IMG/VR virus record: IMGVR_UViG_3300009506_000001
Location: 1-64,000 of that record
DNA length: 64,000 bases
DNA from: a virus
Reading direction: 5' to 3' (one strand)
The notes under the pieces were generated by a model. It ran no database searches and had not been told where the DNA came from. It worked only from the letters and a program-made list of their open reading frames with translations. The translations under genes and the position numbers were made by a program. Of this stretch, positions 3,734-47,677 are shown in pieces; the stretch's first letter is position 1, and every line of letters starts with the position of its first letter.

Positions 3734-4993
3734 TCACCCATATGGATATGCTGGTGGGGTAAAGTTACTCGTCCAACGTGGTGTTCCTATGCTGAGACGG
3801 AATTCATCAATATATCCATCCATCGAACTAGGTGAATATATTGCACCCGATACATAGAAACTTCCTAGTCTTAGTGAGGACGTGCTGTCGTGCACAACAT
3901 CTGTTGCCATGTTGTATGTTGAAGGTGAACCATATAGCATTCCGTCGATGAAAAGACGGAGGTCCGTACCACTGCGTGTGGCCGCTACATGGTACCATGT
4001 GTTCAATGAAGGTGTCCAAGACCCAACGCCCGTCGTAGCCACTTTGTTGGTTATTCCGTCTGTTGTATAGGTAAACTGTAGTGCGTTGTTGCTGTTACTG
4101 TACTGAAGGAGCCAACCCTTTTGATTTGCTGCGCCGCCATCAAAGTGAGATGCAATACAGTTACCTGGATTGAGACTGTTGAAATTGACCCAACAGTCGA
4201 CGGCAAAGTCGCTTGAACCAAGCGACCAATCTGTGTCGTCTGCTGACTTGATTTCATCTATCGATGGCGAGCCTGACCACGTACGCATAGACGTCGCCCC
4301 AAATTTTGCTCTTGCTGTGCTGTGCTGTGCACCATTCAACATTTGTACTGTGTGAGGACTATGCGTACCGCCAATGCTGCTGTCAACAGCTGTTGTATCG
4401 CCATCAAATGTATCCGAGTGTACCAACAGCTTGGTAAAGGAATCATTACCAGGCACGGTACCCCAAGTAAAAGTTTCTGGGATGTTAATTCTAAATGGAC
4501 CAACTTGGTAGATATTTCCTGCAGTGATGTTAATATCTGGTAGGGTCATGTCGCCAACGGGTGAACCACCAATTTGTGACACTGTTCCGGCTATGCAAGG
4601 AAGCCAATAGTCAGTGGGTGGAGAACCATGGGTACCATGGTCACGTGGATCAAAATTTGTTTTGCCTGTCCAACACCACCACGTAGCTACACCGCTTTGT
4701 ATGGCTGGATAAAACCGTGGTTCAAAATACAAGGCTCCGTCAACTTGGCTTAAATTTAAATAGAGGTTATCAATCTCAATTAGAACATCCTTTGGTGGAG
4801 AACCGGATATACGAGACCAGTCGGGTGCCAAATTATCAAGTTCTGTTTGTGAAGGTAAAGTTCCCTTCATGATACGAACCCGACCTGTACTATGGGCAAA
4901 GCTCGGCGTATAGAGATATGCCGATGAACCATCACGGATTCCGTTAGCTACTACAGCATCTCGTGCATCGATTGAAAGTTTAATGGTAGGCAT
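3734..4993 (-). CDS. Virion protein: N-terminal beta-rich paralog domain plus C-terminal LamG/concanavalin A-like domain
   Basis: WYHVAATRSG...LFIDG, GYIDEFRLSIG...NFTPP LamG signature; likely start MPTIKL at 4993; 5 GSP motifs. Confidence 0.8.
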   Translation of the reverse strand: MPTIKLSIDARDAVVANGIRDGSSAYLYTPSFAHSTGRVRIMKGTLPSQTELDNLAPDWSRISGSPPKDVLIEIDNLYLNLSQVDGALYFEPRFYPAIQSGVATWWCWTGKTNFDPRDHGTHGSPPTDYWLPCIAGTVSQIGGSPVGDMTLPDINITAGNIYQVGPFRINIPETFTWGTVPGNDSFTKLLVHSDTFDGDTTAVDSSIGGTHSPHTVQMLNGAQHSTARAKFGATSMRTWSGSPSIDEIKSADDTDWSLGSSDFAVDCWVNFNSLNPGNCIASHFDGGAANQKGWLLQYSNSNNALQFTYTTDGITNKVATTGVGSWTPSLNTWYHVAATRSGTDLRLFIDGMLYGSPSTYNMATDVVHDSTSSLRLGSFYVSGAIYSPSSMDGYIDEFRLSIGTPRWTSNFTPPAYPYG

Positions 4994-5003
4994 AAAATTA
5001 TTC

Positions 5004-5453
5004 CTAATGTGGTTTAAATGACATGCCAAAATACGTCAATGTTACTGGATTACCGACAGTAAGTGTCAACGAATCCAAACGAACCATAGCAGTGCCGGTC
5101 GTTAAAGAAACGTCACCAAGCACCCATCCGTTCCAGTTATTGGTCGTATATAACGCAAACCACGTAGCTGTACCAGATGCTGAAGCATTAACCGGATTTG
5201 TTGAGGGTGTGACTTGCAATCTAACAAATCCACCATCTTCTACTGATGGTATGGTAGGAATACCCGCCATATAAAATGAAGTAAATGAAGCCAACAAATC
5301 TGCACTTGTGCTAGCTGCAGTCCAGGCATTTACATCGGTGGGGATCGTTCCTTGATATATGTTGAGCGTATTATATACCGTACCACTATATGTGATGCGT
5401 GAGAATCCAATTGCCATGGCTGTAGAATAAGCAAAGTTTACCAAAAGTCCCAT
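5004..5453 (-). CDS. Small virion structural protein, paralog family member
   Basis: IYQGTIP...SGTATWF...GDVSL...LDSLTL shared with 5784, 6342 and the N-terminus of 3734. Confidence 0.7.
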   Translation of the reverse strand: MGLLVNFAYSTAMAIGFSRITYSGTVYNTLNIYQGTIPTDVNAWTAASTSADLLASFTSFYMAGIPTIPSVEDGGFVRLQVTPSTNPVNASASGTATWFALYTTNNWNGWVLGDVSLTTGTAMVRLDSLTLTVGNPVTLTYFGMSFKPH

Positions 5454-5782
5454 TATATAAATCCTAAATCTGGTGAACCAACAAATGTGGCTACTGTAAC
5501 TGTTAGTGTTTCCATTGGCCCTGGTTTTGCGGCACTCGCTGTACCTGCAATAGCTTTGTTACTCATGGTTACTGGCATACTGATTGTATCATCTGTGGCA
5601 CGCAAGGAACCTGCAATACCAGCATTAGACATGGATACTGCAAACGTTACGGTATCATCTGTGGCACGCAAGGAACCTGCAATACCAATGTCAAACAACG
5701 AAACTGGTAAAATAAAATCGCCACCAAATCCTGTTGGTGGAGGTGGAGGTGGTATTTTTCCTGTTATTACAATAACAGCCAT
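5453..5782 (-). CDS. Small putative virion protein with poly-Pro and internal repeat
   Basis: Likely start MAVIVITGK at 5782; GIAGSLRATDDT occurs twice. Confidence 0.6.
   Translation of the reverse strand: MAVIVITGKIPPPPPPTGFGGDFILPVSLFDIGIAGSLRATDDTVTFAVSMSNAGIAGSLRATDDTISMPVTMSNKAIAGTASAAKPGPMETLTVTVATFVGSPDLGFI
5586..5687. repeat. 36-bp exact direct repeat with 66-bp period
   Basis: gtatcatctgtggcacgcaaggaacctgcaatacca at 5586-5621 and 5652-5687. Confidence 0.9.
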
Positions 5783-5783
5783 T

Positions 5784-6332
5784 TTAGTAAGAGAAACTCC
5801 TTGGCATCTTGAATTGAGCTGGTCCAAGTTCGTACGTCTGACCAGCAACGATATTCAAGTCAGCTAGTGTCATAGACCCACTACCACCCACAAGAGTGAT
5901 ATCACCCATTAACATACCAAGCCAAAATGCTGAGCCACCTGGATTGTTACCTCGATCCGCTGGATTATAACTTTGGTATCCTGTCCACAGCCACCAAGAG
6001 GCGACGCCACTATTTGCAGCAATTGCGGTTTGTAGTGTCCACTCTACGTAGGCATCGGTTCCAGTTATAAAGTTACTAAACTGTGCAGTAGTGTGTGCTC
6101 TTTCAATCAGCACTTCGCTTGGTGAGCCAATTAACCGATCCCACTCTGGATAGCCATACATATCGATATCATTTTGAGATGGTACTGTACCACTCATGAT
6201 TCGGAGATAGCCTGTAGTTCCACCTGCTGTGTACGCCATAGCTGGTTGGCCTGTGGTGGCTGTACCCGACGTAATACCATGGTTGTCACAAATTTTGTTT
6301 GCGATCTGTGTTGTAAATTTGATTTCTGCCAT
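5784..6332 (-). CDS. Virion structural protein, paralog family member
   Basis: GYLRIMSGTVP...SGVASWW...GDITLVGG...LADLNIVAG. Confidence 0.75.
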   Translation of the reverse strand: MAEIKFTTQIANKICDNHGITSGTATTGQPAMAYTAGGTTGYLRIMSGTVPSQNDIDMYGYPEWDRLIGSPSEVLIERAHTTAQFSNFITGTDAYVEWTLQTAIAANSGVASWWLWTGYQSYNPADRGNNPGGSAFWLGMLMGDITLVGGSGSMTLADLNIVAGQTYELGPAQFKMPRSFSY

Positions 6333-6341
6333 GGCGATTCC

Positions 6342-6872
6342 TTATGCCTGAAATTTAACTGCCCAATGCAATAGCTGTACTGGAGTACCTGCAACCAGAT
6401 TTAAACTATCTAGGTGTGCTGATCCAATACCACCACTGAGAGAAACGTCACCAATGACAGCACCATATGTTGTCATTGGAAAACTTCCTCCGGAGCCGGT
6501 TCTACTCCACATAGCCCACCATGAAGCTGTTCCCGTTCCAACAGCCGTGACCGTTTGTGGATATGGGTAGTAGCTTGGATCAAAAACAACCTCTTGGACG
6601 TTTAGTGTTGGATCATTGGTAGGTACGGTGTGATCAGTGATCTTAAAGTTATTCCACTCTGCAAGCAAGTTTGAGGAAGGTGAGCCTTCACCAGGAGGAG
6701 AACCACCTACTGGATATCCATCAAAAAAGTCATTTGCGTCAGTGGGTATTGGTCCTTTATATACCTGGAAAACGTTTCTGTCAGGGGTACTAGAAATCCA
6801 TGATGAGGAAGTGTATATAAACCCTTGAATCATCCCAGCGTAAAAACCAAAATTTGCACGTAGTACTGCCAT
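6342..6872 (-). CDS. Virion structural protein, paralog family member
   Basis: VYKGPIP...TGTASWW...GDVSLSGG...LDSLNLVAG. Confidence 0.75.
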   Translation of the reverse strand: MAVLRANFGFYAGMIQGFIYTSSSWISSTPDRNVFQVYKGPIPTDANDFFDGYPVGGSPPGEGSPSSNLLAEWNNFKITDHTVPTNDPTLNVQEVVFDPSYYPYPQTVTAVGTGTASWWAMWSRTGSGGSFPMTTYGAVIGDVSLSGGIGSAHLDSLNLVAGTPVQLLHWAVKFQA

Positions 6873-7882: not shown

Positions 7883-7885
7883 GTA

Positions 7886-7915
7886 ACCTCCTTATATTTT
7901 CAGGAGGTATTTATA
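7886..7915 (-). promoter_or_regulatory. T4-type late promoter with SD-occluding hairpin
   Basis: TATAAATA (7908-7915) overlapping ACCTCCT, which pairs with the AGGAGGT SD. Confidence 0.75.
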
Positions 7916-20494: not shown

Positions 20495-22324
20495 TTATTG
20501 TTTTATCCAGCCCGATGTAGCTATTAATGTACCACCTGGGTTATAGGTATGTGTATTTACCCACGCATTGGTACCATCTGTTACGGTTACAGTTCTAACA
20601 TTCGAAGGATACAAATATGTTATTGGACTACCTACAGAAACTGCTGGGCTGCCCACTCCAATTGGATTGGTTCCGTAAGCAAAGGTCATTACCCAACTAG
20701 TGACCCCGTCCGTTTTTGAGACTGTGTTTAATGATCCATCAGCGTTGTAGCTGTATGTTTCTGGATACTGATCGGGGAAAACCAAATTATCATGGTCATC
20801 ATATGTGCCTGGGATAGTAAAACTATCAACGGATCGCCAACTTGTTCCATCGGATATAGCAGCAGTGCCATCTATGGGACTGCCATCTTTCCCATCACTG
20901 ATGTATATAATTTGCCCTGCTGTGCCGGCACTTGGAAGCGTTGCAACATTATATGTTGGAAGGGTGAGTGGACCTGTTGGAACACGCGTTCCGTTGGTTA
21001 GCAAATATTGTTTATGGTCATCGTCGGCCAAACCAGAAAGATTGCCATGGTCTGTCGCCGAACTGCCAATTGTAGCTGAGAAAACTTGTGTATTTCTCCA
21101 ATCAACGTAGCTACTGCCCTGGTCCGTTAATCTGAAGCGTACTTGTGGAGTATTTGTATATAGTGTTCTTGCTTGGCAGATAAATGTTGCTATGGGTGTG
21201 AATTCCTGGAACGGTAGCCCTGATAGTGAGTTTAACTCTGAATTGGCTCCTGCCTGTGCAGCTGGAGCCGTAGCATATTCAGCGATACCCTGTAGTGCAA
21301 TTATAGGGTGTCTCATGTCGTTTGTTGCAAGTATGTGGAAAAGAAAGAAACTATTATCCGACACTTCTGTCAATGCCCACCCTCCCGGTGAGCCAGCAAC
21401 AAAAGAATTATATGGTGGAAGACCATTTACAGCACCAGTAAAATTAACACCATCGCTATAGATGAATGGAAAGTTAGTTGGCGTTGATTTGTACCATACG
21501 GCCTTTGTTCCCATTCTGTAAAATACAGGGAGCTGAGCAATTGGTGTCAAATCCTGCAAAAGATCATAACTATTGACACCACTCCCAATATCGTAAATGT
21601 GATGTGGAATATCCTCGTCACGAATGAACCCATTGCCAATATCAATCTGAACATCCGCATCTATTGGAGTACCAGGATCGGCGGTAAATGTTCCACCGGG
21701 GGCCAGACCAGAAATGAACTGTGTACCAAATGAAAGGTGGAAATGGGCGTGCGTGACACCATCCATAACCATACCATGACGTTCATCACCAAAATATATT
21801 GCCTGCTGTAGATCTGCATTCCAATAGAGAACTGCGACGTATACATTGTCGACGAACAGTAGCGTTGCATCAAAAATAGTGGTGTACTGAATTGTATTGT
21901 TTACGTCAATGTAAAGAAAGTACTCCCCTGTTATATTTGGAATTGTCAGCGAAATGGGAGTGTAACTTTCATATCGGATACCGTGAATATAGTAGTCGAA
22001 GTATGGAGGGGACCCTGATATAGAACCCGCTCTTGGTGCAATTGTAAATGTTCGTGTTGCAGGGCTACCATCGTCAAAGGCCATGTATGATTGATCTCGA
22101 TTAAGATATCCTGTGTATGCCTCCCCATCTCGCCAAACATTAAAAATTGGAACATTCATAAAATCACGAACATTATTGGCTCTGTGCCGTTTCGTGGATG
22201 TTCCATCACAGATGGCAATTGCAGAGTTGAGATCAATCGTTGCAGGGCTCCCAGCAGCCTCTGGCAAGTGGCATACGTCAGCATAGCTCGCTGGTGTTGA
22301 TTTTGTGAGGACTAAATTCGCCAT
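20495..22324 (-). CDS. Tail-fibre/virion structural protein
   Basis: Likely start MANLVLTK at 22324; DHGNLSGLADDDHKQY fibre motif; LPTYNVATLP...SDG module; 7 GSP. Confidence 0.8.
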   Translation of the reverse strand: MANLVLTKSTPASYADVCHLPEAAGSPATIDLNSAIAICDGTSTKRHRANNVRDFMNVPIFNVWRDGEAYTGYLNRDQSYMAFDDGSPATRTFTIAPRAGSISGSPPYFDYYIHGIRYESYTPISLTIPNITGEYFLYIDVNNTIQYTTIFDATLLFVDNVYVAVLYWNADLQQAIYFGDERHGMVMDGVTHAHFHLSFGTQFISGLAPGGTFTADPGTPIDADVQIDIGNGFIRDEDIPHHIYDIGSGVNSYDLLQDLTPIAQLPVFYRMGTKAVWYKSTPTNFPFIYSDGVNFTGAVNGLPPYNSFVAGSPGGWALTEVSDNSFFLFHILATNDMRHPIIALQGIAEYATAPAAQAGANSELNSLSGLPFQEFTPIATFICQARTLYTNTPQVRFRLTDQGSSYVDWRNTQVFSATIGSSATDHGNLSGLADDDHKQYLLTNGTRVPTGPLTLPTYNVATLPSAGTAGQIIYISDGKDGSPIDGTAAISDGTSWRSVDSFTIPGTYDDHDNLVFPDQYPETYSYNADGSLNTVSKTDGVTSWVMTFAYGTNPIGVGSPAVSVGSPITYLYPSNVRTVTVTDGTNAWVNTHTYNPGGTLIATSGWIKQ

Positions 22325-22373
22325 TGATTTTGTACCTTTTAGGGTTATATTACTCCATAATGTTCCGTTAAAG

Positions 22374-22390
22374 TATTTATCAAATAAATA
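22374..22390. promoter_or_regulatory. Divergent late promoters
   Basis: GATAAATA on minus and AATAAATA on plus between divergent structural genes. Confidence 0.6.
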
Positions 22391-22417
22391 AACATGCACA
22401 TTTAATAAGGAGAAATC

Positions 22418-23083
22418 ATGGCCGAGATCATCATTGCCTCGTATTTTGAGGACGGAACAGGCCCCGCTACGGGTCTTAGCCCAACAGTTCGCATCTGGGA
22501 AGTCACAGCCTCCGGACAGAGTTTGGTTGTTGGTGCTCCTTGTGGTTCCGGACAAGCAACCGATGGCGTAATGACGGAAATGTCTGATTGTGGTTCTCCA
22601 CTAGCAAAAGATGGTTTCTATCGGTTTACCTTCACGGATCTGATTGGATATGACCCAACCAAAGTTTACGCTATTCGTATAGACGGTGGGGCTTCGTTGG
22701 GTATTCCATTTAGATACCAGACAAATAGCATCTCCCCATCAGACGCACTGGACGCAGCTGCTGTTGAAGGTGCTGTATGGGACGCCCCAATAGCCGCACA
22801 CACAACCGCTGCTACAATGGGTTACTTGGAAAACCTTATTGATCTTATCCGCAAATACAGCACAAACCGAACAAAAATCGACGTCAATAATAAGACGCTC
22901 ACCATCTACGACGACGATTGTGCCACTGTGCTTCGTGTCTTCCGTCTACTCGATCACACTGGAACTCCAAGCATTACAGAGGTATGTGAACGAACATCCA
23001 TTGGTGGTACGCTAAGCGGATCTTCACCAACAGGCTCGGTTGGCCCAGATGGTCAGCCAACCTGTTCAACCGCTGCACCGTAA
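22418..23083 (+). CDS. Putative virion structural protein
   Basis: SD AAGGAG; VWDAPIAAH and NRTKID...LTIYDDD motifs; Cys-containing. Confidence 0.75.
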   Translation: MAEIIIASYFEDGTGPATGLSPTVRIWEVTASGQSLVVGAPCGSGQATDGVMTEMSDCGSPLAKDGFYRFTFTDLIGYDPTKVYAIRIDGGASLGIPFRYQTNSISPSDALDAAAVEGAVWDAPIAAHTTAATMGYLENLIDLIRKYSTNRTKIDVNNKTLTIYDDDCATVLRVFRLLDHTGTPSITEVCERTSIGGTLSGSSPTGSVGPDGQPTCSTAAP

Positions 23084-24775: not shown

Positions 24776-27700
24776 ATGCGAGTATTTGAGTTCTACACAG
24801 CGAACACCCTTGAGATGATCATCGAAGCAAACGTCATGAACGTCAAGGACGAGTATCAGGGTACCAGCATCCACAATTTTCTGAACAATTATGTAGATAG
24901 CTTCCGTACCAAAGAAGCAAAGCAGATGTGGTTGAAGAAACTCGCTAAGTTGTTTATCAATGACAACCGATACCTCAACGTTGTTCGTGACCTCCCTGCT
25001 GATGCACCAGAGTGGGCTCAGAAAGCGGCTGCTACCGGAGATCTCTTCTATTTCCAGCCTACACCTGAACTTAAAGATCACATGGATCACCTTTCTCACT
25101 ACGTCGCCGGTCTTGAAGCCGACATGACAGGCAACAATCCTGATGCCAAGGCATATGCCAATCGTGAATTCCAGGGCTTCATGAAAGCTGAAAATCTTGA
25201 GACTCTCGTCAAGAAATCCAACGAATACTTCAAGCGCGGTTCCAAAAAGGCTGGTCGTGATATCGAAGGTATGACTAAGCTCATGGATGTTGATGGTGGG
25301 TTCTCGTGGTGGAAGCTTGACACACAGGCCGCATATGCTCGTGAAGGTAAAGCTCTACAGAACTGTATTGGCTCACACTGGACAAAAGCCAAAACAGATC
25401 AGGGTGGCTACTCAATTGTTGTTATGAAGAACCACAACATGGAGTCTGTTGTTGCAGCTCGCATTAGTAACAAAAGTAATGCTCTTGATGAAATGAAAGG
25501 TAAGAATAATAAGCCACCTATTCCAAAATATATGCCTGGTGTCCAGGCACTGATGAACAAATTTAAGCTTGATGCTAATCGTGGTGCTCTATATGATATC
25601 AAGCGAGCTGGTTACTACTACCAAGACCAAAAGCTGTACACAAAGGCACAGGCCGCTCGTGATCTTGTCCAGGCAAACCCAATTACAAAGATTAGCAATC
25701 GCCTGACAATGAATGAGATCACCAGCTCCAACCAGGAGCTATTAAAAGATCTTTATGGAACAAACTACAGCCAGTACCGCAATTACAGCCCAGAAGAAAT
25801 TGGTAAAGTATATGATGTTCGTACAAAAGATAACATCCCTCTTCTCTCTGCTGTTGTTGTGCAAGGTGAGCTTACTCACCTTCAGCGTTATATTCAGCCT
25901 ACCATCAACCAAGGGGCAATGCATGAAGCTGCTGAGCAGAGCATGAAAGACACAACTGCTCGTCAGTTCTTGTCGGCTCTAATGCGGATGGGTCTTGTTA
26001 AAACAGTTACACCTAAACTCCAGCGTGAAATTTTTTGGAATGACAAAATGGCGTACAATGCAGAGAAGGGTGACTTTGAAGAGACAAAGGCCGATGAAGA
26101 TGTTACAGTTGATAAGAAGCAGCACAGGTGGCAAGCGTACACGGGTAGCTCTGTTCGGGATCTTGCTAATTCCCTACGCCGTGAGCACGTATACACAAGT
26201 GATCAGGAGAAAGATAAAAAGGAAAGAGCCTTTCTTGATTCTGTAAATCGAATTTATGTTACAACAGCTGCTAAGGCAACAGGTGAGCAAGGCCGTGAGA
26301 CAGATAAGATTCTAGCTCTGGCCGTTAATCCAAAAGGTGAAACTGCCCCATATATCATTCGTGGTGCAGATGTGCATCGTGGCAAGACACTCTATGACCG
26401 TGATAACAATCTCGATGAGAAGACGCTGAATTCTATTATTGGTCTTGCCAATGCAAAGGACTTCAGCATACCTCGCACATTGCTTATCCGTCATGGTATT
26501 GGTAAAACAAAAGATGGACATTACTCCCGTGAAGTTCTAAGTGTTAAGCCAGAAAGTATGGCCGGTGACATTCCAGCCAAGAAATGGGACTTCACTAAGA
26601 TCCCCATTGAAGATCGTCTTGCTGCTGTTGTCCGTGCCATAACGGAAGACATCCGTTCAAACAAAGATCACTGGAACCCTGGTAAGACAGACGAGTTTGG
26701 TATTATGAAAGCTCTCCGTGAATTCACGACAGGGAGTACGTGGGGTGACTGGGAAGAAGCTGATTTCTATTGGGGAGACAAAGATACAAAGAAATGGCTT
26801 TCCGACCACTTTGCTGGTAAGATTCCTGATGGACTGATCAGTGTTGATATTGGTTATGGACATGACAAGAAACATGCCATCAACATGCTCACACATGGCA
26901 ACAAGATTATCCAGATCGATGATGATTCTAAGAACAACAACTGGCAGAAGTGGGATGATTTTGAAACTATCACTGAGCAGCTGAATAAATTTGCTAAGGC
27001 AAACCACTTGACCTTTGATCCGCAGTCTACCAACAAGTCGAAAGAGTTCAACGTTGACAAGCAAGGCCAAATCCGTCCCGAAGCTGCCCTCAAGAAGGAA
27101 CAGATTGAGCGACTACGATCTCAGGGTCGTTATGGCAAAGAAGGTGTTGATGAACTACCATTTGCAAATGGTGCCAAACTAAAGCGTATGGATCCGGAGC
27201 AACAGGGTAAGTGGCTGCGTCTTGGTATTGAGAAGAAAACAGCAGGTGAGGCATGGTACCTTGAAATGCCTGATGGTTCCACACCAGCCGCATTCTTTGT
27301 TAGTAAGGGCAAGGTTACACAGATGTACCATACCGCATCTCGAACTGAAACAGAGGCTCAGACCCAGCGTTTGGGAGCTCGTAGTAAAGTTGGTGTTACA
27401 CTTCCAACCGAACGTGGTCCTCGTAGAGCAGAACTGCCTTACATAAAGGCTGCAGCAGAAAAATTTGGTTGGCAGATGGGTCCACAAATGCAGTTTAGTG
27501 CTCGTAACCGTTTAACAAGTGTCCTACAAGATTATGATGCTCGTGGTACTCGCAATCGGTATTCTATCAAACCTACAACCGAACGCCCACTTGTTAATCT
27601 TGGACTGCTCAATGCTGAACGGCGCGGACGACATATGGTGACAATGTCCGTGTCCCATAAAGGTAAACAAGTGCTTCGACATATTGCTGCGGGAACGCCT

Positions 27701-28069
27701 GTTGATCTGACGGACCTTGTTACTGGGCAGCCTGTTAGTCCTGATTTCAATCTTCCAGAGAAGCCTGCACAGACTACACGCCGTGCAGCTGGTCCAAGAG
27801 CTCCTCGTCAGGCCACGGAAGGCGGTGGCACAAAATCACAGCGTGCTCTTACTAGGTACAATGAGATGACGGCTGAGAATGGACGTGCTCCATCCCGTAG
27901 TGAGTTTATGCAGGTGCTTATGGACGATCCATTCAACATGTCCAGTGCTGGTGCTCAGACATATTACTACAACGTCAAGAAGAAAGCACAGCAGGCTAAC
28001 GAAGGCGTTCGGGCAGGGCGTCCTTTGGGATTGTCCGATCTATTTGACGCTTACTTGAGGTCGAAATAA
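24776..28069 (+). CDS. 1097-aa protein with PcfJ-like domain; candidate internal head protein
   Basis: REGKALQNCIG PcfJ-like motif; C-terminal MSSAGAQTYYYNVKK helical domain; late promoter. Confidence 0.75.
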   Translation: MRVFEFYTANTLEMIIEANVMNVKDEYQGTSIHNFLNNYVDSFRTKEAKQMWLKKLAKLFINDNRYLNVVRDLPADAPEWAQKAAATGDLFYFQPTPELKDHMDHLSHYVAGLEADMTGNNPDAKAYANREFQGFMKAENLETLVKKSNEYFKRGSKKAGRDIEGMTKLMDVDGGFSWWKLDTQAAYAREGKALQNCIGSHWTKAKTDQGGYSIVVMKNHNMESVVAARISNKSNALDEMKGKNNKPPIPKYMPGVQALMNKFKLDANRGALYDIKRAGYYYQDQKLYTKAQAARDLVQANPITKISNRLTMNEITSSNQELLKDLYGTNYSQYRNYSPEEIGKVYDVRTKDNIPLLSAVVVQGELTHLQRYIQPTINQGAMHEAAEQSMKDTTARQFLSALMRMGLVKTVTPKLQREIFWNDKMAYNAEKGDFEETKADEDVTVDKKQHRWQAYTGSSVRDLANSLRREHVYTSDQEKDKKERAFLDSVNRIYVTTAAKATGEQGRETDKILALAVNPKGETAPYIIRGADVHRGKTLYDRDNNLDEKTLNSIIGLANAKDFSIPRTLLIRHGIGKTKDGHYSREVLSVKPESMAGDIPAKKWDFTKIPIEDRLAAVVRAITEDIRSNKDHWNPGKTDEFGIMKALREFTTGSTWGDWEEADFYWGDKDTKKWLSDHFAGKIPDGLISVDIGYGHDKKHAINMLTHGNKIIQIDDDSKNNNWQKWDDFETITEQLNKFAKANHLTFDPQSTNKSKEFNVDKQGQIRPEAALKKEQIERLRSQGRYGKEGVDELPFANGAKLKRMDPEQQGKWLRLGIEKKTAGEAWYLEMPDGSTPAAFFVSKGKVTQMYHTASRTETEAQTQRLGARSKVGVTLPTERGPRRAELPYIKAAAEKFGWQMGPQMQFSARNRLTSVLQDYDARGTRNRYSIKPTTERPLVNLGLLNAERRGRHMVTMSVSHKGKQVLRHIAAGTPVDLTDLVTGQPVSPDFNLPEKPAQTTRRAAGPRAPRQATEGGGTKSQRALTRYNEMTAENGRAPSRSEFMQVLMDDPFNMSSAGAQTYYYNVKKKAQQANEGVRAGRPLGLSDLFDAYLRSK

Positions 28070-33595: not shown

Positions 33596-35812
33596 TTAGA
33601 TCTCAGCCCCAGTAGAGACGATTCTGATTGGTATATAAATGAATTCAGCAGCCTTGACTGGCTTCAATGCCACGTCAATGTACATCTCGTTACGGTCAAT
33701 ACGAGCTGGTGTATTATTTGTTTCATCACAAATCGTAGCAAAGTCATACAAACCACGCTTGACGACGATGTCGCTCAAGAATGCATCCACAACAGCCTTC
33801 AAGTTATTACGTGTTAGCTGATCGTTTGGCTGGAACACAAAGCTCATTGTATTCTTACGTAGCTGACGACGGATGTACGCAATCAGACGAGTAACATTGA
33901 TGCGGTCAAGAGCACTTGCATCTGGTGCAGATGTCTTCTGACCCCAAACCAGAATACCACGACCTGGGAAGAACGCAATTGGGTTAACATTGACAAAGTA
34001 GCGATATAGATCGTCACGCTGTCCCTGATCAACATAAGTTGGAACAAATGTTGTTGGTAGTCCGAGAGTACCGGACACATAACCAAGCTCAGATACGCCT
34101 GTAACAAGACCACGACGAGTACCTGCTGGTGCAAACCAAACCTCAGAAACGCTGTCACTGTATGCCCAAGTCTTCAGTGCTGTACCAGAAGGAGCTACAA
34201 CAATCTCCTTACCATCGACATTTGTAACAACCTGCCATGGGTAGTAGTAAGAGATCAAGTTACTTGATGCACGATCTGCTGTCTGTGCCCAAGCAACAGC
34301 CTGGGAAGGTGTCATGTAAGAAGGTGTGTCACCAATTACAACAGCCTCCTGCTTGATAGCATTGCTAACTGCTAGATCAACTAGCTCAGCATTTGTTTCC
34401 CAGTAACCTGGGCAAACGATAATGTTGTATTCAAAGTTCTCAGAGCGAACATCGCTGTTACCAACAATCTCTGCCTGTAGAGCTGTCACAATAGCCGTAC
34501 GACGGGCAGCATCGTTAGCACCTAGGCTTGTTAGGTTAAAGAACTCATGTGTGTACTTGTAGTCATCTGCAGCAGCGATCAGATCGTCTGCAGCATCCTG
34601 TGCTGTCCACTCTTCTGGGAAGGATGGATTAGAACCAGCACCTGGGAATGTACCATCGGAACCTGGACCAACTGTATCACCGTTTGCATTAATGTTATTG
34701 GTTGTACCAGAACGACCTTCGATACCAACATATGGTGGTGCAACTGCTGGCTGGTCAAAGCCGTTAGGAAATACATCCAAACCACCGGTTAGAGAGGAGT
34801 CATCCTCAAATGTTGCTTCTACGTTTGAGAAGGAATACAGAGGATAAACAACATCGGTCATTGCATCGTTTAGCAGAGATAGGTACTCGGAAGAATCAAT
34901 TGTCTCCTTGTAACCATCAACACCGGTTGTAGTTGTTGCTGTGTAGCCATCTGGGCTACCTGGAACCATTGTCTGGAAGAAGCCAGGAGTTGTCATAACA
35001 ACAGATGTGCTAGAACCTAGCTCTGTACCACCACCGTTAACAGCATCGCTCTTGATCTGGATGGCACCAGATACTAGTGTTGCTGTTGCAGCAGAGCCAA
35101 GCTGGGCATTAATGTCATTTAGTAGCGATCCAACATTGTGAACGTCTGGAGAACCTGCTGGTGTACCACCTGGGGAACCAACACCTGGAAGTGGGGAACC
35201 TGTTGGTGCACTCAAAGTTAGGACAATTGGAGTACCATCAACAGTAACTGTGGCTGTATCACCTGCAACAACGTTTAGCACTGTTGCATTTGTCAAAGCT
35301 GCCGTGTAAGATAAAGTAACGTAGGCATTTACCCAAGGATCACCTGGGAACTTCTGGTTTGTTAGGTTTGTCTCTGTAAGGTAAGTATTGACAAGGTTTT
35401 CCAATACAAAGGAAGCTTCCGTAACCTTCGTATCCCAAAGGGTGCGAAGATTGTCAATGTTGTCATCAAGGTTAACATTTGCACGAACCACATATGCAAG
35501 GGAACCCTGATTCAAATACTGTTGCAGAGCAGCCAGACCGTACTCGTTACGAGCATCGCCATCGTGACGGTTTCCAGAAGAATCTTCTAGGAAAGCTGGA
35601 ACACCGTAAAGTTCCAGAGCTGTCTTCTGAGAAGTAACGGTTCGAACAACACCACTCTCATAAGTGCCTGGTGCTGGCGTCACACCGTCCTGCTGGACTT
35701 TTTCATCCTGTGTTGCGATGAAGAACAAAGGAACTGTGGAAGAGCCTGCTGGAATGAAAAAGCTCTCATCAGTTACCGTTACACTTACACCTGGGCTTAC
35801 TAATGTTGCCAT
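33596..35812 (-). CDS. Tail sheath protein (T4 gp18-like)
   Basis: LVSPGVSV, WFAPAGTRRG, WGQKT, LDRINV, DETNNTP, KPVKAAEFIYI; TATAAATA at 35868-75. Confidence 0.95.
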   Translation of the reverse strand: MATLVSPGVSVTVTDESFFIPAGSSTVPLFFIATQDEKVQQDGVTPAPGTYESGVVRTVTSQKTALELYGVPAFLEDSSGNRHDGDARNEYGLAALQQYLNQGSLAYVVRANVNLDDNIDNLRTLWDTKVTEASFVLENLVNTYLTETNLTNQKFPGDPWVNAYVTLSYTAALTNATVLNVVAGDTATVTVDGTPIVLTLSAPTGSPLPGVGSPGGTPAGSPDVHNVGSLLNDINAQLGSAATATLVSGAIQIKSDAVNGGGTELGSSTSVVMTTPGFFQTMVPGSPDGYTATTTTGVDGYKETIDSSEYLSLLNDAMTDVVYPLYSFSNVEATFEDDSSLTGGLDVFPNGFDQPAVAPPYVGIEGRSGTTNNINANGDTVGPGSDGTFPGAGSNPSFPEEWTAQDAADDLIAAADDYKYTHEFFNLTSLGANDAARRTAIVTALQAEIVGNSDVRSENFEYNIIVCPGYWETNAELVDLAVSNAIKQEAVVIGDTPSYMTPSQAVAWAQTADRASSNLISYYYPWQVVTNVDGKEIVVAPSGTALKTWAYSDSVSEVWFAPAGTRRGLVTGVSELGYVSGTLGLPTTFVPTYVDQGQRDDLYRYFVNVNPIAFFPGRGILVWGQKTSAPDASALDRINVTRLIAYIRRQLRKNTMSFVFQPNDQLTRNNLKAVVDAFLSDIVVKRGLYDFATICDETNNTPARIDRNEMYIDVALKPVKAAEFIYIPIRIVSTGAEI

Positions 35813-39012: not shown

Positions 39013-42000
39013 TTAACCTATGATAAACTCGTTGTGCATGCCGTACTCTTCGACATTGTTTGTGACGTTGTCCATGATTTCCTGTAGCAACAGTTCTTGC
39101 TCATCCTTTGCTTCCTGTGCTAGATCAGAGGCATTCAAGGAAACACCACCACCTGCACCTGGCAACGAACCATACTTACCACGGATCTGTGCAAGCATCT
39201 TCTTGCATTCAGATACTGCCCATCTTTCAATCCAACGTCCCGTGAAGCGATCAGTTAGTAGCTCCTGCTCTGTTCTTTCTACTGCCACGTCCATTAAGAT
39301 TGTTTCACCTATTGAAAATCTCTGATGTAGTGTTAGTGCACGAGCTGCTTCATTCCAATGGAATCCTAAACGGGAAGCAAATAGATGTTCCATCTGTTCA
39401 ATGTATTCACTCACCAAATGGAAACTTAACAGATCAAACGTTCCCATGTTGTACAAGTGCTGAAGAACAACCTGACCAAATACACCTGAACCGTGTGCAC
39501 TTGACAAGAAAGCAGAAGTAACACGGAAGCAACCCATAACCTGAACAATCTTATCAAAGCCATACTGTCCATCAGGCAACGTGTAACCCTGTCCTTCATT
39601 ATCATCGTCTGCATCTGGTTTTGTTAGCTTATAGATTTGCTTGCCTGGCTCAATGTACAGCTTCATGAAACCACGATGATAACCAGAACCACTATGTCGA
39701 CGCAATTCCTTCAAAGCAATATCAATTGCCTTGTACATCTGGTTCTTTGTTAGCTCCACTTCTACAGTTGGATAGCCAAGCAAGAACAAAATCTCATTCA
39801 TCATCTCACGACGCTCATCCTGAGATCCATCTGTACCAATACCCTCCTGTTCGTAAGAAGGGATGCAAGATAGTCCATCTGTACCTGCCAATGGGCAGTG
39901 AATTGTTGGCTGTGGACTGAATGCAAACATCAATTCGTTTAGGTTTGGATCTTTCGATAGATCAACCAATGAATCATTACCGGTTGAACCAGTTGTGAAA
40001 ACAATCGTTGTGGATGATGCAATGGCTGCGGTTGCAATAGCAGAGGCCGCAACCCATGTTGTTCCATCCCATTCCTTCAAGGTATTTGTTGCCAAATCAA
40101 ACCACAAATCACCCGTATCTGGTGTCAATGGTGTCGTACTGAAGATAATGTTAACCCAGTTTGTACCATTCCACATCGACAGCGTAGAGTGTTGTGTATC
40201 ATACCAGAAGGTTCCTGCAGGGAGCGTTGCCTGTGAAGGATCATCTGGAGAATCCACTGGATTAAACTCTACCCATGCCCCTGCAACAAGCTCTGACCAT
40301 TCTCCTGTTGTTGGATTATACCATACCGTTCCATTTGCAACAGAGGTTGGATCAGTTGGAGATGAAATGAATGTAGCCTCTTGCCACTTTGTACCATCCC
40401 AAACATACATGAGCTCTGTTGCACTGCTGTACCAAACGACCCCTGCTGGGAGAGCAATATCAGCTGTTGGATCAAGCGTACTTTGTGTGAAACTTACAAC
40501 TGGTACCCATGCACCTGCAACTGAGTCCCAAACATTTAGTACGTCTGTGTCAGAGTTCCACCACGTATCACAAGACTCTATGTCAGTTGGATCTACACCA
40601 TAGACGATTGCACACTGAGAAACCCAAGCTGTATTTGCTCCATTACGTTGGAACACTTCACCATCATTGTTAACCCAATACTGATTAGCAGTTGGACTCG
40701 TAGGTTTTGCTCCAACCGTCAATAGCTCACCTATAACTGTTGATCCTGTAGAGCTGTAGTCGGCAAGCGATGTAAACAAGTTTCCACCAGCTGTGATTAC
40801 TGGCTCCGACTCATCTGCACTAATTAGTCGAACTGTTGTTGATGGCTGCGAACCAACAAAACCAATTGTTGCAAGTAAATTAAGTGGTGACTGATCGCCC
40901 AGCTGAGCATTAATAGCTGCGAATACTTTATCAAATCGACCATCGGTTGCATTGCAGACGTTTACAACAATGTTGAAAACCTCACCACCAACAGTAATTG
41001 TTTCGGTGTACTCACCAACTGCCAATGCCAAGTCACTTGCAGAGTGTCCTGCACCAAGTGTAAAGTCAATGTAACTTCTTCCGATTGGATTCCAGATTCC
41101 AACAACCGGTGTATCATATTGCCACAATAGGCTATTGATATCATCAAACCAATATGTACCAGCCGTTAATGCTGTTGGATCTTCGTTCCAGTATAAAGCT
41201 TCGATTTCTTCCCACGTGCAAGTGTCTTCGTTGTATTGGCGAAGGAGAAGGTCTGTAGGATTATACCAATAGTAACCACAGTTGGCTGTAACACCAACTG
41301 ATGGATCTGTTGTCTGGTCATATAGTGTATCTTCACACCATACGTTACCACACCAATGGAATGCTGCTGATGGGGATCCTGAACGGTACCAATAGTCGGT
41401 CCCACTCAAGTTTACTGTTAGTAGTGGATCCTTTGAGTATCGTAGAATCTGACTCTCAGGGATTACATCCCAAGAAGCACCATTCCACTGATATAGAATA
41501 TCATCGTCATTGTCATACCAGTAATTGCCAACTGCTAGTGCGGTTGGATCCGTAGGCTCATTAAGCACAGGGATTTCAGTGTGCTCATAGCCATCCCACT
41601 GATAGAGGACACCTGTTGTTGTATTATAATAGTAGGAGTTTGTATTAGGTGGTATAGTACTCTGTGGAGCCGTTGTAAGCTGTTCCAATTGAACATTAAT
41701 GGCATCAATAAGATCTGCATATGTCTGTGCATCGGAACCATTTACAATAATTGTGTACTCTGTGCCATCGATCTCCATTAACATGGAGTAGTCTCGACCA
41801 GCTGTCAATCCTGTTCCATCCGTTGGCTCAAAAGCAGTTGCCCATTCAACAGTAACTGTACCAGCTGTATCTGGTGTGCTCTGCAAACACTTGTCTAGGG
41901 AGTAGGCATATACACCTTCGCAGTGATAACGGTTTTCACAATCAACAGCATAAGCATTGACGAAATATGCAACACCTTCTTGCATGCCTGTGATATCAAG

Positions 42001-42354
42001 AGTCGTGGTAAAGGTTCCACCTGTACCTTTTTCAACGCATTCGTAGAAGGCACCAACCACCAGAGCTGTCCCAATAACATCTCCTACGTGCAGATCGCTG
42101 TCTGCTGTTGGATCGGCAGTATATTGCGTTCCATTCGTTGGACACGGCGTATCACGGTTTGCACCAACAGTATCGATTGTGATAACGATACCACCGTAAG
42201 CCTGATTTTCAGATGTACACCCTAATGCTGGAGGTGGAATGTTCCACGAAATACGACCAGTTGTAGCACTCGTACGATCGAGTGTTACTGTGATTTCACG
42301 GCCCTCTTGAATGATCAGGTTTGGTGCATCAGCAAAAGCGTCAAATGTTCCCAT
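39013..42354 (-). CDS. Neck protein (T4 gp13-like C-terminus) with a large Trp-rich repeat extension
   Basis: LLGYPTVEVEL, WIERWA..CKKMLAQIRGKYGSLPGAGGGVSLN at C-terminus; G.YWYD...WDG repeats. Confidence 0.8.
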   Translation of the reverse strand: MGTFDAFADAPNLIIQEGREITVTLDRTSATTGRISWNIPPPALGCTSENQAYGGIVITIDTVGANRDTPCPTNGTQYTADPTADSDLHVGDVIGTALVVGAFYECVEKGTGGTFTTTLDITGMQEGVAYFVNAYAVDCENRYHCEGVYAYSLDKCLQSTPDTAGTVTVEWATAFEPTDGTGLTAGRDYSMLMEIDGTEYTIIVNGSDAQTYADLIDAINVQLEQLTTAPQSTIPPNTNSYYYNTTTGVLYQWDGYEHTEIPVLNEPTDPTALAVGNYWYDNDDDILYQWNGASWDVIPESQILRYSKDPLLTVNLSGTDYWYRSGSPSAAFHWCGNVWCEDTLYDQTTDPSVGVTANCGYYWYNPTDLLLRQYNEDTCTWEEIEALYWNEDPTALTAGTYWFDDINSLLWQYDTPVVGIWNPIGRSYIDFTLGAGHSASDLALAVGEYTETITVGGEVFNIVVNVCNATDGRFDKVFAAINAQLGDQSPLNLLATIGFVGSQPSTTVRLISADESEPVITAGGNLFTSLADYSSTGSTVIGELLTVGAKPTSPTANQYWVNNDGEVFQRNGANTAWVSQCAIVYGVDPTDIESCDTWWNSDTDVLNVWDSVAGAWVPVVSFTQSTLDPTADIALPAGVVWYSSATELMYVWDGTKWQEATFISSPTDPTSVANGTVWYNPTTGEWSELVAGAWVEFNPVDSPDDPSQATLPAGTFWYDTQHSTLSMWNGTNWVNIIFSTTPLTPDTGDLWFDLATNTLKEWDGTTWVAASAIATAAIASSTTIVFTTGSTGNDSLVDLSKDPNLNELMFAFSPQPTIHCPLAGTDGLSCIPSYEQEGIGTDGSQDERREMMNEILFLLGYPTVEVELTKNQMYKAIDIALKELRRHSGSGYHRGFMKLYIEPGKQIYKLTKPDADDDNEGQGYTLPDGQYGFDKIVQVMGCFRVTSAFLSSAHGSGVFGQVVLQHLYNMGTFDLLSFHLVSEYIEQMEHLFASRLGFHWNEAARALTLHQRFSIGETILMDVAVERTEQELLTDRFTGRWIERWAVSECKKMLAQIRGKYGSLPGAGGGVSLNASDLAQEAKDEQELLLQEIMDNVTNNVEEYGMHNEFIIG

Positions 42355-43586: not shown

Positions 43587-43606
43587 AGCTTGTTACCTTT
43601 GTAATG

Positions 43607-43951: not shown

Positions 43952-43978
43952 GACTAATATTTATTCGAATACTCCGTT

Positions 43979-44472: not shown

Positions 44473-44487
44473 TATTCAATGGAGTAT

Positions 44488-44516
44488 ACAGTACAGTGGA
44501 AAACCTGAAAAGTCAA
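44488..44516 (-). promoter_or_regulatory. Sigma70-type promoter just after the capsid terminator
   Basis: TTGACT-N17-TACTGT. Confidence 0.5.
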
Positions 44517-44524
44517 CAGGCAAT

Positions 44525-44552
44525 AAAAAAGGGCGTCCGAAGACGCCCTTTT
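44525..44552 (-). terminator. Rho-independent terminator after the major capsid gene
   Basis: aaagggcgtc-TTCG-gacgcccttt with U-tract on minus. Confidence 0.85.
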
Positions 44553-44579
44553 CTGCTTTACGACTAACGTCGCTACTAC

Positions 44580-46043
44580 TTAGGCAATATCAAGAGCCTG
44601 AACTGTGATCTTACCGTAGTAGTCACGGCTGTTACCCAACGATGTTGTTGGATCCGTGAAGCTGGTCTTACCATAACGAGTCATCAAGGAGACAACTGGC
44701 TGGAATGTGACTGGGTTAACAATCACGCCAGAGCTCATCAATGGGATGTATGGTGCGTAGAAGTAACCAGCATCCGTTTCACCGTTACCACCCTTGTAAC
44801 CAAGGAGGATTGTGTCGTTACCGTCGTTACGAGCGGCAGCAGTTGGATCAGAGAAAATACCATCTGCAGGTGAGTTAACACCTAGAACACCAGCCTGGTT
44901 CCATAGGTAGCTGTAGACCTTGATTGTGCCGTTAAGCGTACCAACTAGCATTGTGTTGTTAGGACCCTTGAAGGAACCGCTAACAGCTGGAGCAAAGACG
45001 GACTTAGCAGCAGACTGTAGAACGGAAACGACCATTGGGGAAGCAACCATGAAGTTAGCAGAACCACGACGTGTACGACGGCCAATCTCGTTAGCAACGA
45101 AGTTAACAAGAACACCTAGGTTAGCTAGGCGGTCACCGATGTAAGCTGGGGTGTAGTTACCAGCTGTACCGTATGCACCAGCACCAGCACCGTCAAATAC
45201 AGCTGTTGTACCAGCAAGAGCGATAAGATCACCAAGGATCTCGGAATCGATTTCCTGAACGATTTCAGCGGAAAGACCCTGAGTCATCTCGGACTCTAGA
45301 TCCAAACCGTGCTGTGCGTTCAAGTCCTGCATGGCCTCGATTGTCCAACCAGCCTGTAGCTTACGGCTACGAGCTTCAACTGCCTGGCTGACAACCTCTA
45401 GGCTCATCTTACGACCACCAGAACCTTCGATTGTGGAACCGGAACCACCAACCGTACAACCAGCTGTTGCGTCAAGGGTGGAACCCCAACCTTCACCAGT
45501 TGTTGTAGTAGCTGCGATATCAGCAACACCATCCTGCTCACCAAGACCGGAAGCACCAGCTGTCTGGGCATCGTCTGGAGCACCTAGTGGGGAAGCACTA
45601 GAAACAGCACCGGAATAGAAGCTACGTAGGTATGGGTTGAAACCAGCAACCGAAGTTGGGTTACCAAATGCTTCATCACCAGCTGTGATGCTCTGCTCGC
45701 CAACGGTAGTAGATGGGAAACGACCGTTATCGGTAGCAGCCTCACCATACTTGTAACGTAGGGAGTAAACTAGGCCAACTGGACCGGACATTGGCTGAAC
45801 ACCAACAAGCTCAGTAGCAATTGTACCTGGGATGACACGACGGATCATTGGGATAAGAATCTTACGGAAACCGGCGATGTCGTGTGCAGCTGTGGAACCA
45901 TGTGGCTGACCAGCTGCTGTTTCATGAAGAACGTAGTTCTTCTGGTTTTCTAGAAGAGGACCAACGACCTTGGCCTGTGCGGCATCAAGACCTTCCATCA
46001 AGGCTTCTTTGGTCTCACTCCAATTTTCAAACATTTCGTCCAT
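44580..46043 (-). CDS. Major capsid protein (T4 gp23-like)
   Basis: LIPMIRR, GVQPMSGPVGL, VEARSRKL, EAMQDL, EIDSEI, YAPYIPL, MTRYG. Confidence 0.96.
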   Translation of the reverse strand: MDEMFENWSETKEALMEGLDAAQAKVVGPLLENQKNYVLHETAAGQPHGSTAAHDIAGFRKILIPMIRRVIPGTIATELVGVQPMSGPVGLVYSLRYKYGEAATDNGRFPSTTVGEQSITAGDEAFGNPTSVAGFNPYLRSFYSGAVSSASPLGAPDDAQTAGASGLGEQDGVADIAATTTTGEGWGSTLDATAGCTVGGSGSTIEGSGGRKMSLEVVSQAVEARSRKLQAGWTIEAMQDLNAQHGLDLESEMTQGLSAEIVQEIDSEILGDLIALAGTTAVFDGAGAGAYGTAGNYTPAYIGDRLANLGVLVNFVANEIGRRTRRGSANFMVASPMVVSVLQSAAKSVFAPAVSGSFKGPNNTMLVGTLNGTIKVYSYLWNQAGVLGVNSPADGIFSDPTAAARNDGNDTILLGYKGGNGETDAGYFYAPYIPLMSSGVIVNPVTFQPVVSLMTRYGKTSFTDPTTSLGNSRDYYGKITVQALDIA

Positions 46044-46089
46044 TTTAATCTCCTTAGAGTTGAGTTTGTTTGTTAATACTTACTAGCGA

Positions 46090-47037
46090 TTACTTAAGCC
46101 CTGCTAGACGCTGTAGGCGAACACGAGCAGCCTCTGTTAGGTGCTCTTTGCCTGCTACATCTTCAGCAGCTCTTTCTTCTTTCAAGGTTTCATCGTCACC
46201 AGTGACAACCTTACCGTCACTTTCGGACAACACTTCACCTTCATCTTCGGTGCCTTCAGCTAGTACTGTATCTTCCTTCTCTGAAGCCTCCTCAACGACC
46301 TCTGCACTCTCACGTAGTACACGGCCGATGAAGGTTTGATAGCCCTCTTCAAGCTGTTCTGTTGCAACGTTACGAAGGATAGCCTCCATAACCTCACGGG
46401 AACGACCTGTCAAAGGTTTTAGCACTGTCGTGAGCTTAGCGTCACGCTCCATCTTGGCCAACTTACGCTCGCTCTCTTCAAGAGCAGCAGTTGTGTCAGA
46501 TAGACGCTCTTCTGTCTCACGTAGTGTTCCTTCTAGGGACTCGTCATCAGCATAGTTTGTTGCGTACTCGTTAGCGAATGCTTCGAAGAGCTTACGGCCA
46601 AACTGGACCTTACGTGCGTCTTCGATATCTTCACGGAGTTCTTCAACTTCAGCTGCTAGGCGAATCTCCAAAAATGCGTCGAGTTTCTCGACAAGTTCTG
46701 CTAGGTCAGACTTGAGCTCCTCGCCCATCTCCGACTTAGCTTCAACCACCTTTTCAGCATACTCAGCTTCTAGGTCACGGAAACGATTAATGTCGTCCTT
46801 AAGCTCAGCAACTTCTTCCGCTAGGAAATCACCAATCTTGGTGTCAATTGCTTCGATTAGGGCATCACGCTCCTGCATCCACTGCTCAGTTAGCTCGGTG
46901 CGAACGTCAGCCTCAGTAGCCTTACGGACTTCTTCGACTGCCTCAGTTAGCTTTGTGCTTAGAGCTGTTTCAAGTTCTTTCTTTGTATCCTCAGAAAGCA
47001 CTTCAGCCTCTAGCAATTTTTGAAGTAGTTCTTCCAT
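46090..47037 (-). CDS. Prohead scaffold (T4 gp22-like)
   Basis: Acidic coiled coil upstream of capsid; FGRKLFEAF; ends RLQRLAGL; likely start MEELLQ. Confidence 0.85.
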   Translation of the reverse strand: MEELLQKLLEAEVLSEDTKKELETALSTKLTEAVEEVRKATEADVRTELTEQWMQERDALIEAIDTKIGDFLAEEVAELKDDINRFRDLEAEYAEKVVEAKSEMGEELKSDLAELVEKLDAFLEIRLAAEVEELREDIEDARKVQFGRKLFEAFANEYATNYADDESLEGTLRETEERLSDTTAALEESERKLAKMERDAKLTTVLKPLTGRSREVMEAILRNVATEQLEEGYQTFIGRVLRESAEVVEEASEKEDTVLAEGTEDEGEVLSESDGKVVTGDDETLKEERAAEDVAGKEHLTEAARVRLQRLAGLK

Positions 47038-47133
47038 TCTTTCGCTCCTCTGTAACTTAGAGTTTGTTGTGTTCAAATGAAGTTTACGTAAACTTATTGT
47101 TTTACAATTGTTATTTATGTTGCTTTAATACAC

Positions 47134-47168
47134 AAAAAGGTTTTTATCCCCTTGCGGAGATAAAAACC
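47134..47168 (-). terminator. Rho-independent terminator after the tandem small genes
   Basis: ggtttttatc / gataaaaacc stem with U-tract on minus. Confidence 0.65.
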
Positions 47169-47225
47169 CTATAGTTTTGGGGAAGTTATGATAACCCTAA
47201 AGTAGGTATTTATTTGAACTTTTTG

Positions 47226-47438
47226 TTATGCAACAACTGCATATGTGGCAATATCGTACCAGTCGGCAGCTTCACCTGCTGGGGAGCCAGCAGCCTGACG
47301 TGCAACTGCAACTGCACCCAAACCACCATTTGCATCAGATACAAAAACCAAGTTACCAAGATAATCAGCTGCTACAGGTAGAGTTGCTAGTGTATACGAG
47401 ACCAGTTGAGCTGGACGTCCATTATTTAATAGTGCCAT
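47226..47438 (-). CDS. 70-aa putative head decoration/fibre module, copy 2
   Basis: Start MALLNNG at 47438; about 76% identical to 47465..47677. Confidence 0.75.
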   Translation of the reverse strand: MALLNNGRPAQLVSYTLATLPVAADYLGNLVFVSDANGGLGAVAVARQAAGSPAGEAADWYDIATYAVVA

Positions 47439-47464
47439 TTGCGTATTCCTTTTAAAACTTTGTA

Positions 47465-47677
47465 TTAGGCTACAACTGTGTAGTCGACAACATCGACCCA
47501 TTCAGCAGCTTCACCAATTGGAGAACCACTGGTGTAACGTGCAACTGCAACTGCACCCAAACCACCATTTGCATCAGATACGTAGACCAAGCTGCCAACG
47601 TGCAGTGCAGCTGCTGGTAGAGTTGCTAGCGTGTAAGAGACCAGCTCAGCTGGACGTCCGTTATTTAATAGTGCCAT
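47465..47677 (-). CDS. 70-aa putative head decoration/fibre module, copy 1
   Basis: YTLATLP...G.LVYVSDANGG; TATAAATA at 47720-27. Confidence 0.75.
   Translation of the reverse strand: MALLNNGRPAELVSYTLATLPAAALHVGSLVYVSDANGGLGAVAVARYTSGSPIGEAAEWVDVVDYTVVA

Follow-up and report, generated by a model that had tools for sequence, protein, structure and literature searches.

The tripeptide Gly-Ser-Pro (GSP) recurs throughout the putative structural proteins encoded in the first 64,000 nucleotides (nt) of the IMG/VR virus record IMGVR_UViG_3300009506_000001, a stretch referred to below as the window. Judged from sequence, GSP appears to be a real, strongly selected and lineage-switchable surface tag, with a writer that is plausible and so far a candidate only; its reading as a selected recognition tag in exterior virion loops is well supported. 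The record is a contig of 155,245 bases from a T4-like jumbo myovirus resembling XacN1, estimated to be 44% complete, and its capsid protein is 58% identical to that of Xanthomonas phage XacN1, the nearest cultured phage. As an explanation, we lean slightly towards a phage-encoded cytoplasmic transferase of the type found in the complete related genome G022, which would sugar the Ser of exposed GSP loops and thereby coat the particle, gain and loss of this writer driving the gain and decay of the loops.

GSP counts in virion proteins and in the rest of the contig

A preliminary description of the window had counted about 33 GSP in 12 putative structural proteins and estimated that chance would give only a few. 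The recount reproduced its tally for every one of these proteins (33 GSP in 5,143 amino acids), and the expectation computed from per-protein composition is 2.2. The three additional occurrences that it listed in the window (1..645, 6872 and 43979) are also present, the last one requiring an upstream GTG start. Over all proteins of the contig, GSP is the most enriched tripeptide, with 73 occurrences against 9.99 expected (log10 p = -37, compared to -6.3 for the runner-up). In 500 per-protein shuffles of the contig the mean count was 9.7 and the maximum 21, and shuffling inside windows of 10-25 residues gave at most 24, so that the excess persists under both composition-matched and local controls, ruling out an artefact of composition or linkers.

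The excess lies in the virion module, where 42 proteins, picked by family matches and position with the counts already known, contain 71 GSP against 6.1 expected (about 12 times chance), and at least 24 of them carry the motif; the remaining 142 proteins contain 2 against 3.9 expected. Because of the way in which these proteins were assigned, the orthologue comparison described below is the cleaner test. Beyond the window, the motif is found in gp6 (one copy), a 3,016-residue wedge protein (10), two fibre-like proteins of 603 and 849 residues (8 and 5) and also in small baseplate-region proteins.

The enrichment is specific to this order of residues. On the contig, Gly-Thr-Pro (GTP), GPS, SGP and PSG occur 17, 7, 15 and 17 times, respectively, and the best other tripeptide ending in Ser-Pro occurs 14 times. 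Virion proteins show no surplus of Ser-Pro that lacks the preceding Gly (47 against 65.5 expected), and neither DSP, NSP, ASP and GTP nor the permuted motifs show an excess comparable to that of GSP. Each of the three positions is thus strict, while the residues flanking the motif have no consensus.

The explanation that a DNA repeat or a mobile mini-element encodes GSP by chance would find some support in the quasi-palindromic GGNTCNCC. However, the Ser of the 73 sites is encoded by all six codons (TCA 25, TCT 17, AGC 11, TCC 9, AGT 7, TCG 4), 18 of the 73 sites thus having AGC or AGT, and the DNA around the sites has nothing in common. The excess is also limited to the coding frame, with 73 GSP compared to 2-21 in each of the other frames, and differences between relatives are synonymous (19 of 19 base differences over the 16 GSP sites common to a close relative). 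Codon, flank and frame evidence together refute this explanation, to which we give practically no weight, and bear out the earlier view that selection acts on the protein.

Distribution among relatives and placement of the sites

The comparison set comprised 18 related contigs together with stretches from cultured relatives. GSP exceeds expectation in G001 (46 observed, 10.2 expected), G003 (29, 4.1), G004 (19, 3.6), G005 (32, 3.9), G015 (75, 6.8), G022 (85, 15.2), G023 (23, 7.1) and G025 (17, 3.1). It is at expectation in G010 (11, 11.6), G011, G012, G014, G016, G024, G029, XacN1 (6, 6.9) and RsoM2USA (8, 7.0), and G002, G007 and G026 have intermediate counts or are short records. From these counts, the presence of GSP in the XacN1-like family looks close to an on/off trait. 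The contrast is also seen between orthologues: in six sets (capsid, sheath, neck, gp6, gp7 and one baseplate protein), the positive genomes hold 106 GSP against 12.6 expected, and the negative ones 7 against 13.2. A gp6 tree with 37 rows requires six changes of the GSP label, at least four of them forced by well-supported branches, although some of these changes reflect the threshold imposed on a graded count. The 341-kb NCBI contig L597 has no GSP in 20 kb (1.4 expected). Counts of the DNA pattern against a reversed control are noisy (54 against 24 in the GSP-negative G012) and served as leads only, and the contigs retrieved from GTDB were just two short mis-binned pieces.

In the positive genomes, GSP is missing from the tube, portal, gp14, gp25, gp5, gp27, gp48, scaffold, protease, terminase, polymerase, helicase and gp46. 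The preliminary description had found none in the capsid protein either; this holds for the present phage and does not extend to its relatives, seven of which have one GSP in the major capsid protein. In six GSP-positive relatives it occupies a variable capsid loop that reads Ala-Ser-Pro here and Gly-Thr-Pro in G010, G011 and G024, in whose genomes GTP is mildly raised at most. In the sheath, the four sites had been placed in an insertion, in agreement with the monomer model, where all lie in coil of an inserted beta-rich domain and three share one low-confidence loop. Inserted domains point outward on phage sheaths, as in gp18.

The positions of the sites turn over. Across relatives, 20 sheath GSP fall into 10 clusters, 60 gp7 GSP occupy 39 positions, and the gp13-like neck protein has seven GSP positions; the 108 homologues of the 221-residue protein encoded at 22418 contain 113 GSP against 7.8 expected, at nine positions, and its distant members do not have the main loop. 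At 54% of sites, half or more of the negative orthologues are gapped opposite the Ser of GSP, compared to 12-22% for other turn-like tripeptides. The preliminary description had GSP at differing positions within one repeated module; in the paralogues at 47226 and 47465, the pair compared, the position is shared.

These alignments bear on the possibility that GSP is merely a favoured tight turn or linker of beta-rich virion proteins, spread by module duplication, with neither reader nor writer. Gly and Pro do favour turns, and 38 of 48 GSP are kept in a close relative at 59% flanking identity, several of the losses being deletions; since GTP (5 of 6), PSG (5 of 5) and SGP (3 of 3) are also well kept between the two phages, this conservation does not discriminate. 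However, the same folds occur without excess in negative relatives, the sites lie at non-homologous positions in unrelated proteins, and neither related or permuted tripeptides nor shuffles of local composition reproduce the count. The shifting positions, the frequent lack of the loops in GSP-negative orthologues and the avoidance of portal, tube, hub and enzymes thus argue against a folding turn conserved in all homologues, and we regard this explanation as largely refuted and very improbable. Instead, the monomer model and the alignments fit Ser acceptors exposed in optional loops of outer proteins.

Candidate writers and readers of the motif

No glycosyltransferase was found in the window, as the preliminary description had noted for modifying enzymes in general. 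Gene-content clustering singled out a PrkA-YeaH-SpoVR operon as the top correlate of GSP within the family. On the contig it is complete (134444-139345, minus strand), lies between phoH and mazG, and its PrkA is 68% identical to Enterobacter YeaG. The operon is found in all five clearly GSP-positive records that span the locus, and in G026, which is probably GSP-positive (G050, from the same sample, has 7 GSP against 0.84 expected); none of the five negative records with its flanks has it, nor do G049 and XacN1. This match would agree with GSP being phosphorylated or remodelled by the operon products, and kinases of eukaryotes classically act on Ser-Pro; a related reading has a host enzyme or some further enzyme modify GSP. 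However, RsoM2USA has PrkA and no GSP excess, and the unrelated 66-69-kb phages G040 and G041 are GSP-rich without it; in a noisy test, the DNA pattern was not clearly raised in other PrkA phages, of which several are complete, and PrkA is common in large phages. In addition, Pfam recognizes only the AAA_PrkA and PrkA C-terminal domains in the contig PrkA and no protein-kinase domain, and the match within the family amounts to about two independent events. We read the operon, which tracks GSP in the family and fails outside it, as a clade-linked trait that by its distribution appears neither necessary nor sufficient for GSP, and we consider modification by this or another such enzyme improbable. 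Genes for a prolyl-hydroxylase-like protein, a C92 amidase, a caspase-like protein, RlaP and an HD-kinase were rejected as candidates, their distributions not matching the trait.

A second correlate is a protein of 122 amino acids (contig 126851-127219, minus strand) that resembles a stand-alone C-terminal domain of the tail sheath and is encoded far from the structural genes. It accompanies the PrkA operon in all seven other family records that have the latter, and is missing from every GSP-negative record. This protein, which could be a decoy, an assembly factor or a GSP reader, is the only candidate reader found, and would suit a non-covalent docking tag, in which the GSP loops would be bound by some small protein of the phage, be it a decoration protein, a fibre tip or an assembly chaperone, that coats or sorts the particle. 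A strict linear motif of three residues in flexible exposed loops is compatible with docking, which if true would imply an unknown decoration system. Against it, three residues without flanking preference provide scant binding surface, the sites occur on very different proteins and are often 6-8 residues apart, the 122-residue protein is missing from G040 and G041, and an invariant hydroxyl residue fits an acceptor site. We therefore hold docking to be unlikely.

The candidate writer that we provisionally favour over a kinase, from gene content and counts, is a module of Maf-like and GT8-like genes. In G022, a block at 44-51 kb contains two PF01973 genes (over the cut-off), a GT8-like gene, methyltransferases and a radical SAM gene. 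In G014, which is 90% complete, GSP-negative and nested among positives, the flanking genes of this block are adjacent and the block is missing; G049 (94% complete) and RsoM2USA, both GSP-negative, are also without the Maf-like gene. The phages G040 and G041 have the same module as G022 at 48-65% identity. Their presumed tail-region stretches hold 8 GSP against 0.55 expected (G040, in proteins without homologues in the jumbo-phage set) and 9 against 0.5 (G041, in proteins homologous to jumbo-phage ones), ratios that are inflated because the stretches were chosen by clustered DNA matches. Close modules of the G022 type, together with additional glycosyltransferase and methyltransferase-like genes, were also seen in the uncultured phages L333, L362, L366, L378 and L379, on stretches that do not include their virion genes.

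In the mechanism that we lean towards, a cytoplasmic transferase would recognize the exposed GSP loops of folded virion subunits during infection and modify the Ser hydroxyl, most probably with a sugar from a phage-encoded Maf-like and GT8-like module. Sheath, neck, baseplate wedge and fibres, and the capsid of most relatives, would in this way acquire a dense coat. Phages with the writer would gain GSP loops wherever the surface tolerates an insertion, loss of the writer would be followed by loss of the motif, and the writer of the present phage would lie in the unsequenced half of its genome. The preliminary description had proposed that an enzyme or decorating protein targets GSP, and its part that concerns a selected tag in exterior loops stands; we infer that Ser carries a chemical modification, which would be a sugar added by the module, and that the gene for this writer lies in the unsequenced half. 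As to the purpose of a coat, we can speculate about shielding against proteases or host defences, charge or hydration, or less sticking to the matrix. More tentatively, and at somewhat less than even chance, coat writing may be portable, a small Maf-like module reading a three-residue sequon and unrelated phages that acquire it independently evolving GSP loops over the whole particle.

Several observations weigh against a writer of this kind. No glycosyltransferase came to light on the 155-kb contig, itself 44% complete, either when some 150 proteins were scanned against Pfam or when PF00535, PF01973 and the Maf and GT8 profiles were used as queries. Apart from the inflated ratios mentioned above, the GSP proteins of G041 may have been imported together with their motifs. 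The module shares a contig with virion genes in only one GSP-positive jumbo genome, G022, which makes the in-family contrast a single event. Co-occurrence with a transferase gene, suggested earlier as a check, was found for the module in G022, G040 and G041 and breaks down for more distant homologues as it does for PrkA: phages with distant Maf or GT8 homologues have no GSP excess (P1 0 against 4.6 expected, CcrBL9 4 against 4.1, and XacN1 and G010 with the counts given above), and D3 is marginal (5 against 2.4). P1, CcrBL9, XacN1 and G010 rule out that any Maf or GT8 gene implies GSP, which leaves only the close subfamily of the module as a possible writer. As modelled (predicted local distance difference test, pLDDT, of 70), the Maf-like protein matches the diphosphokinase MptE best (8SD5, E 3e-4), and also Maf (5MU5, E 0.011, match probability 0.99, template modelling score 0.54) and the sialyltransferases ST8SiaIII and CstII, so that the donor need not be a sugar. 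Finally, flagellin O-glycosylation, Maf included, has no known primary-sequence consensus (PMC7591256). The module was likewise not found on other contigs from the sample of the closest relative, and an unannotated protein of 425 amino acids at contig position 128145 matched unknown PHROGs only and nothing in the Atlas.

Relation to known systems and features of the window

Glycans on capsid proteins of the mycobacteriophages Che8 and Rita are described in PMC11256854, and a Che8-type glycan coat of the virion made with phage-encoded glycosyltransferases is attributed to Freeman et al. 2023 in PMC11256854 and PMC12582341. As in the Che8 type, a covalent glycan coat on particle proteins is proposed here, in our case from sequence alone. 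However, the reported Che8 target is the capsid, whereas GSP is an internal strict tripeptide spread over the virion module of this phage apart from its capsid and tube, and glycosyltransferases were found in the complete relative G022 and not on this contig. For XacN1, Schiff-stained virion proteins and glycosyltransferases are reported in PMC5852040; it belongs to the same broad phage group and has distant Maf-like and GT8-like genes. In place of the dispersed GSP of the present phage, Thr-Pro is repeated in tandem tracts in XacN1 and RAS14 (TPT 76 against 10.9 expected), in XacN1 within proteins homologous to the GSP-bearing proteins of relatives; an excess of a hydroxyl residue followed by Pro in homologous proteins is common to both. 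These mucin-like tracts occur in XacN1 ORF233-237 (L076:683-8105) and the RAS14 paralogues (L504), a family homologous to GSP proteins of G003, G004 and G022, and the paralogues are candidates for the Schiff-positive XacN1 bands.

Maf flagellin O-glycosyltransferases, such as that of Magnetospirillum (PDB 5MU5), act in the cytoplasm on Ser and Thr in the exposed parts of a surface polymer, with nonulosonic acid or Kdo as donor. The candidate writer seen in the relatives has PF01973 and a predicted fold that may correspond, but at about 257 residues is shorter than Maf (632), matches the MptE diphosphokinase equally well and is not on this contig; and where Maf modifies Ser and Thr without consensus, GSP is strict and GTP has no comparable excess. 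PrkA/YeaG-YeaH-SpoVR is annotated as a serine kinase system and is on this contig, but it is found in GSP-negative phages and missing from GSP-positive ones outside the family. GSP may work like the Che8, XacN1 or Maf systems but cannot be assigned to any of them, since the contig does not encode the enzyme, a strict tripeptide sets it apart from Maf and the trait is known from its sequence. Searches of the literature retrieved neither a description of GSP as a motif of phage virions nor an acceptor rule for phage virion glycosylation, which has been documented in very few phages.

A strict tripeptide in outer loops would allow coated phages and outward-facing residues to be predicted from sequence, and would give a testable role to the sialyltransferase-like genes without known function that lie next to capsid genes of phages. 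A transferase that reads a tag of three residues would also be of use for glycosylating proteins at chosen sites. If coat writing is portable, cytoplasmic bacterial O-glycosylation would include a minimal strict sequon, and surface motifs may form a code in which each motif pairs with a writer subfamily, as GSP would here and Thr-Pro tracts in XacN1. Maf-like and GT8-like genes were also observed in P1, from pmgO to pmgQ inside a late operon (L501:34593-37151; this phage has no GSP), and directly after the capsid gene in D3 (orf7, L329:5951-6409) and in uncultured siphoviruses (L609, L611, L617). The placement of the P1 and D3 genes suggests virion modification in common laboratory phages. In the GSP-negative G010 (78367-81243, L248-L249), a PF01973 domain is fused into a protein of 965 amino acids with a methyltransferase-like part.

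Table 1. Motif-carrying proteins and related features of the window (positions in nt of the window)
Feature	Position	Strand	GSP and remarks
LamG-domain virion protein	3734..4993	-	5 GSP (nt 3923, 4265, 4559, 4619, 4796); PF13385, E 4e-17
Small LamG-cluster protein	5453..5782	-	1 GSP (nt 5471); putative virion role, from position
Paralogue of the 3734 protein	5784..6332	-	1 GSP (nt 6120)
Small LamG-cluster protein	6342..6872	-	2 GSP (nt 6678, 6696); no family match
Fibre/connector-like protein, 897 residues	16393..19086	-	7 GSP; phrog_677, E 4.5e-12
Putative virion protein, 441 residues	19148..20473	-	2 GSP; no family match
Putative fibre protein, at most 686 residues, start uncertain	20495..22555	-	7 GSP; no family match
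Family-conserved protein, 221 residues	22418..23083	+	1 GSP (nt 22592), in an insertion missing from distant homologues
Tail sheath, T4 gp18-like fold	33596..35812	-	4 GSP, all in coil; inserted beta-rich domain at about residues 163-305
Sheath loop with three GSP	35147..35200	-	Residues 205-222; pLDDT <50 at 212-220
gp13-like neck/head-tail adaptor	39013..42354	-	1 GSP (nt 41371); 0-5 in relatives, at seven positions
Major capsid protein	44580..46043	-	No GSP; Ala-Ser-Pro in variable loop
Small protein, paralogue 1	47226..47501	-	1 GSP (nt 47280); possible decoration role
Small protein, paralogue 2, 70 residues	47465..47677	-	1 GSP (nt 47519), same position as in paralogue 1

Among other genes, the 1097-residue protein of the window (24776-28069) has a weak PcfJ-like match only and is missing at the same site of the closest relative, L006. 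A caspase-family (C14) peptidase is encoded at L005:9351-10448, and a probable Acb1 protein, directed against the cyclic oligonucleotide-based antiphage signalling system (CBASS), at L004:5210-5698, where the gene was assigned by reading from a family match.

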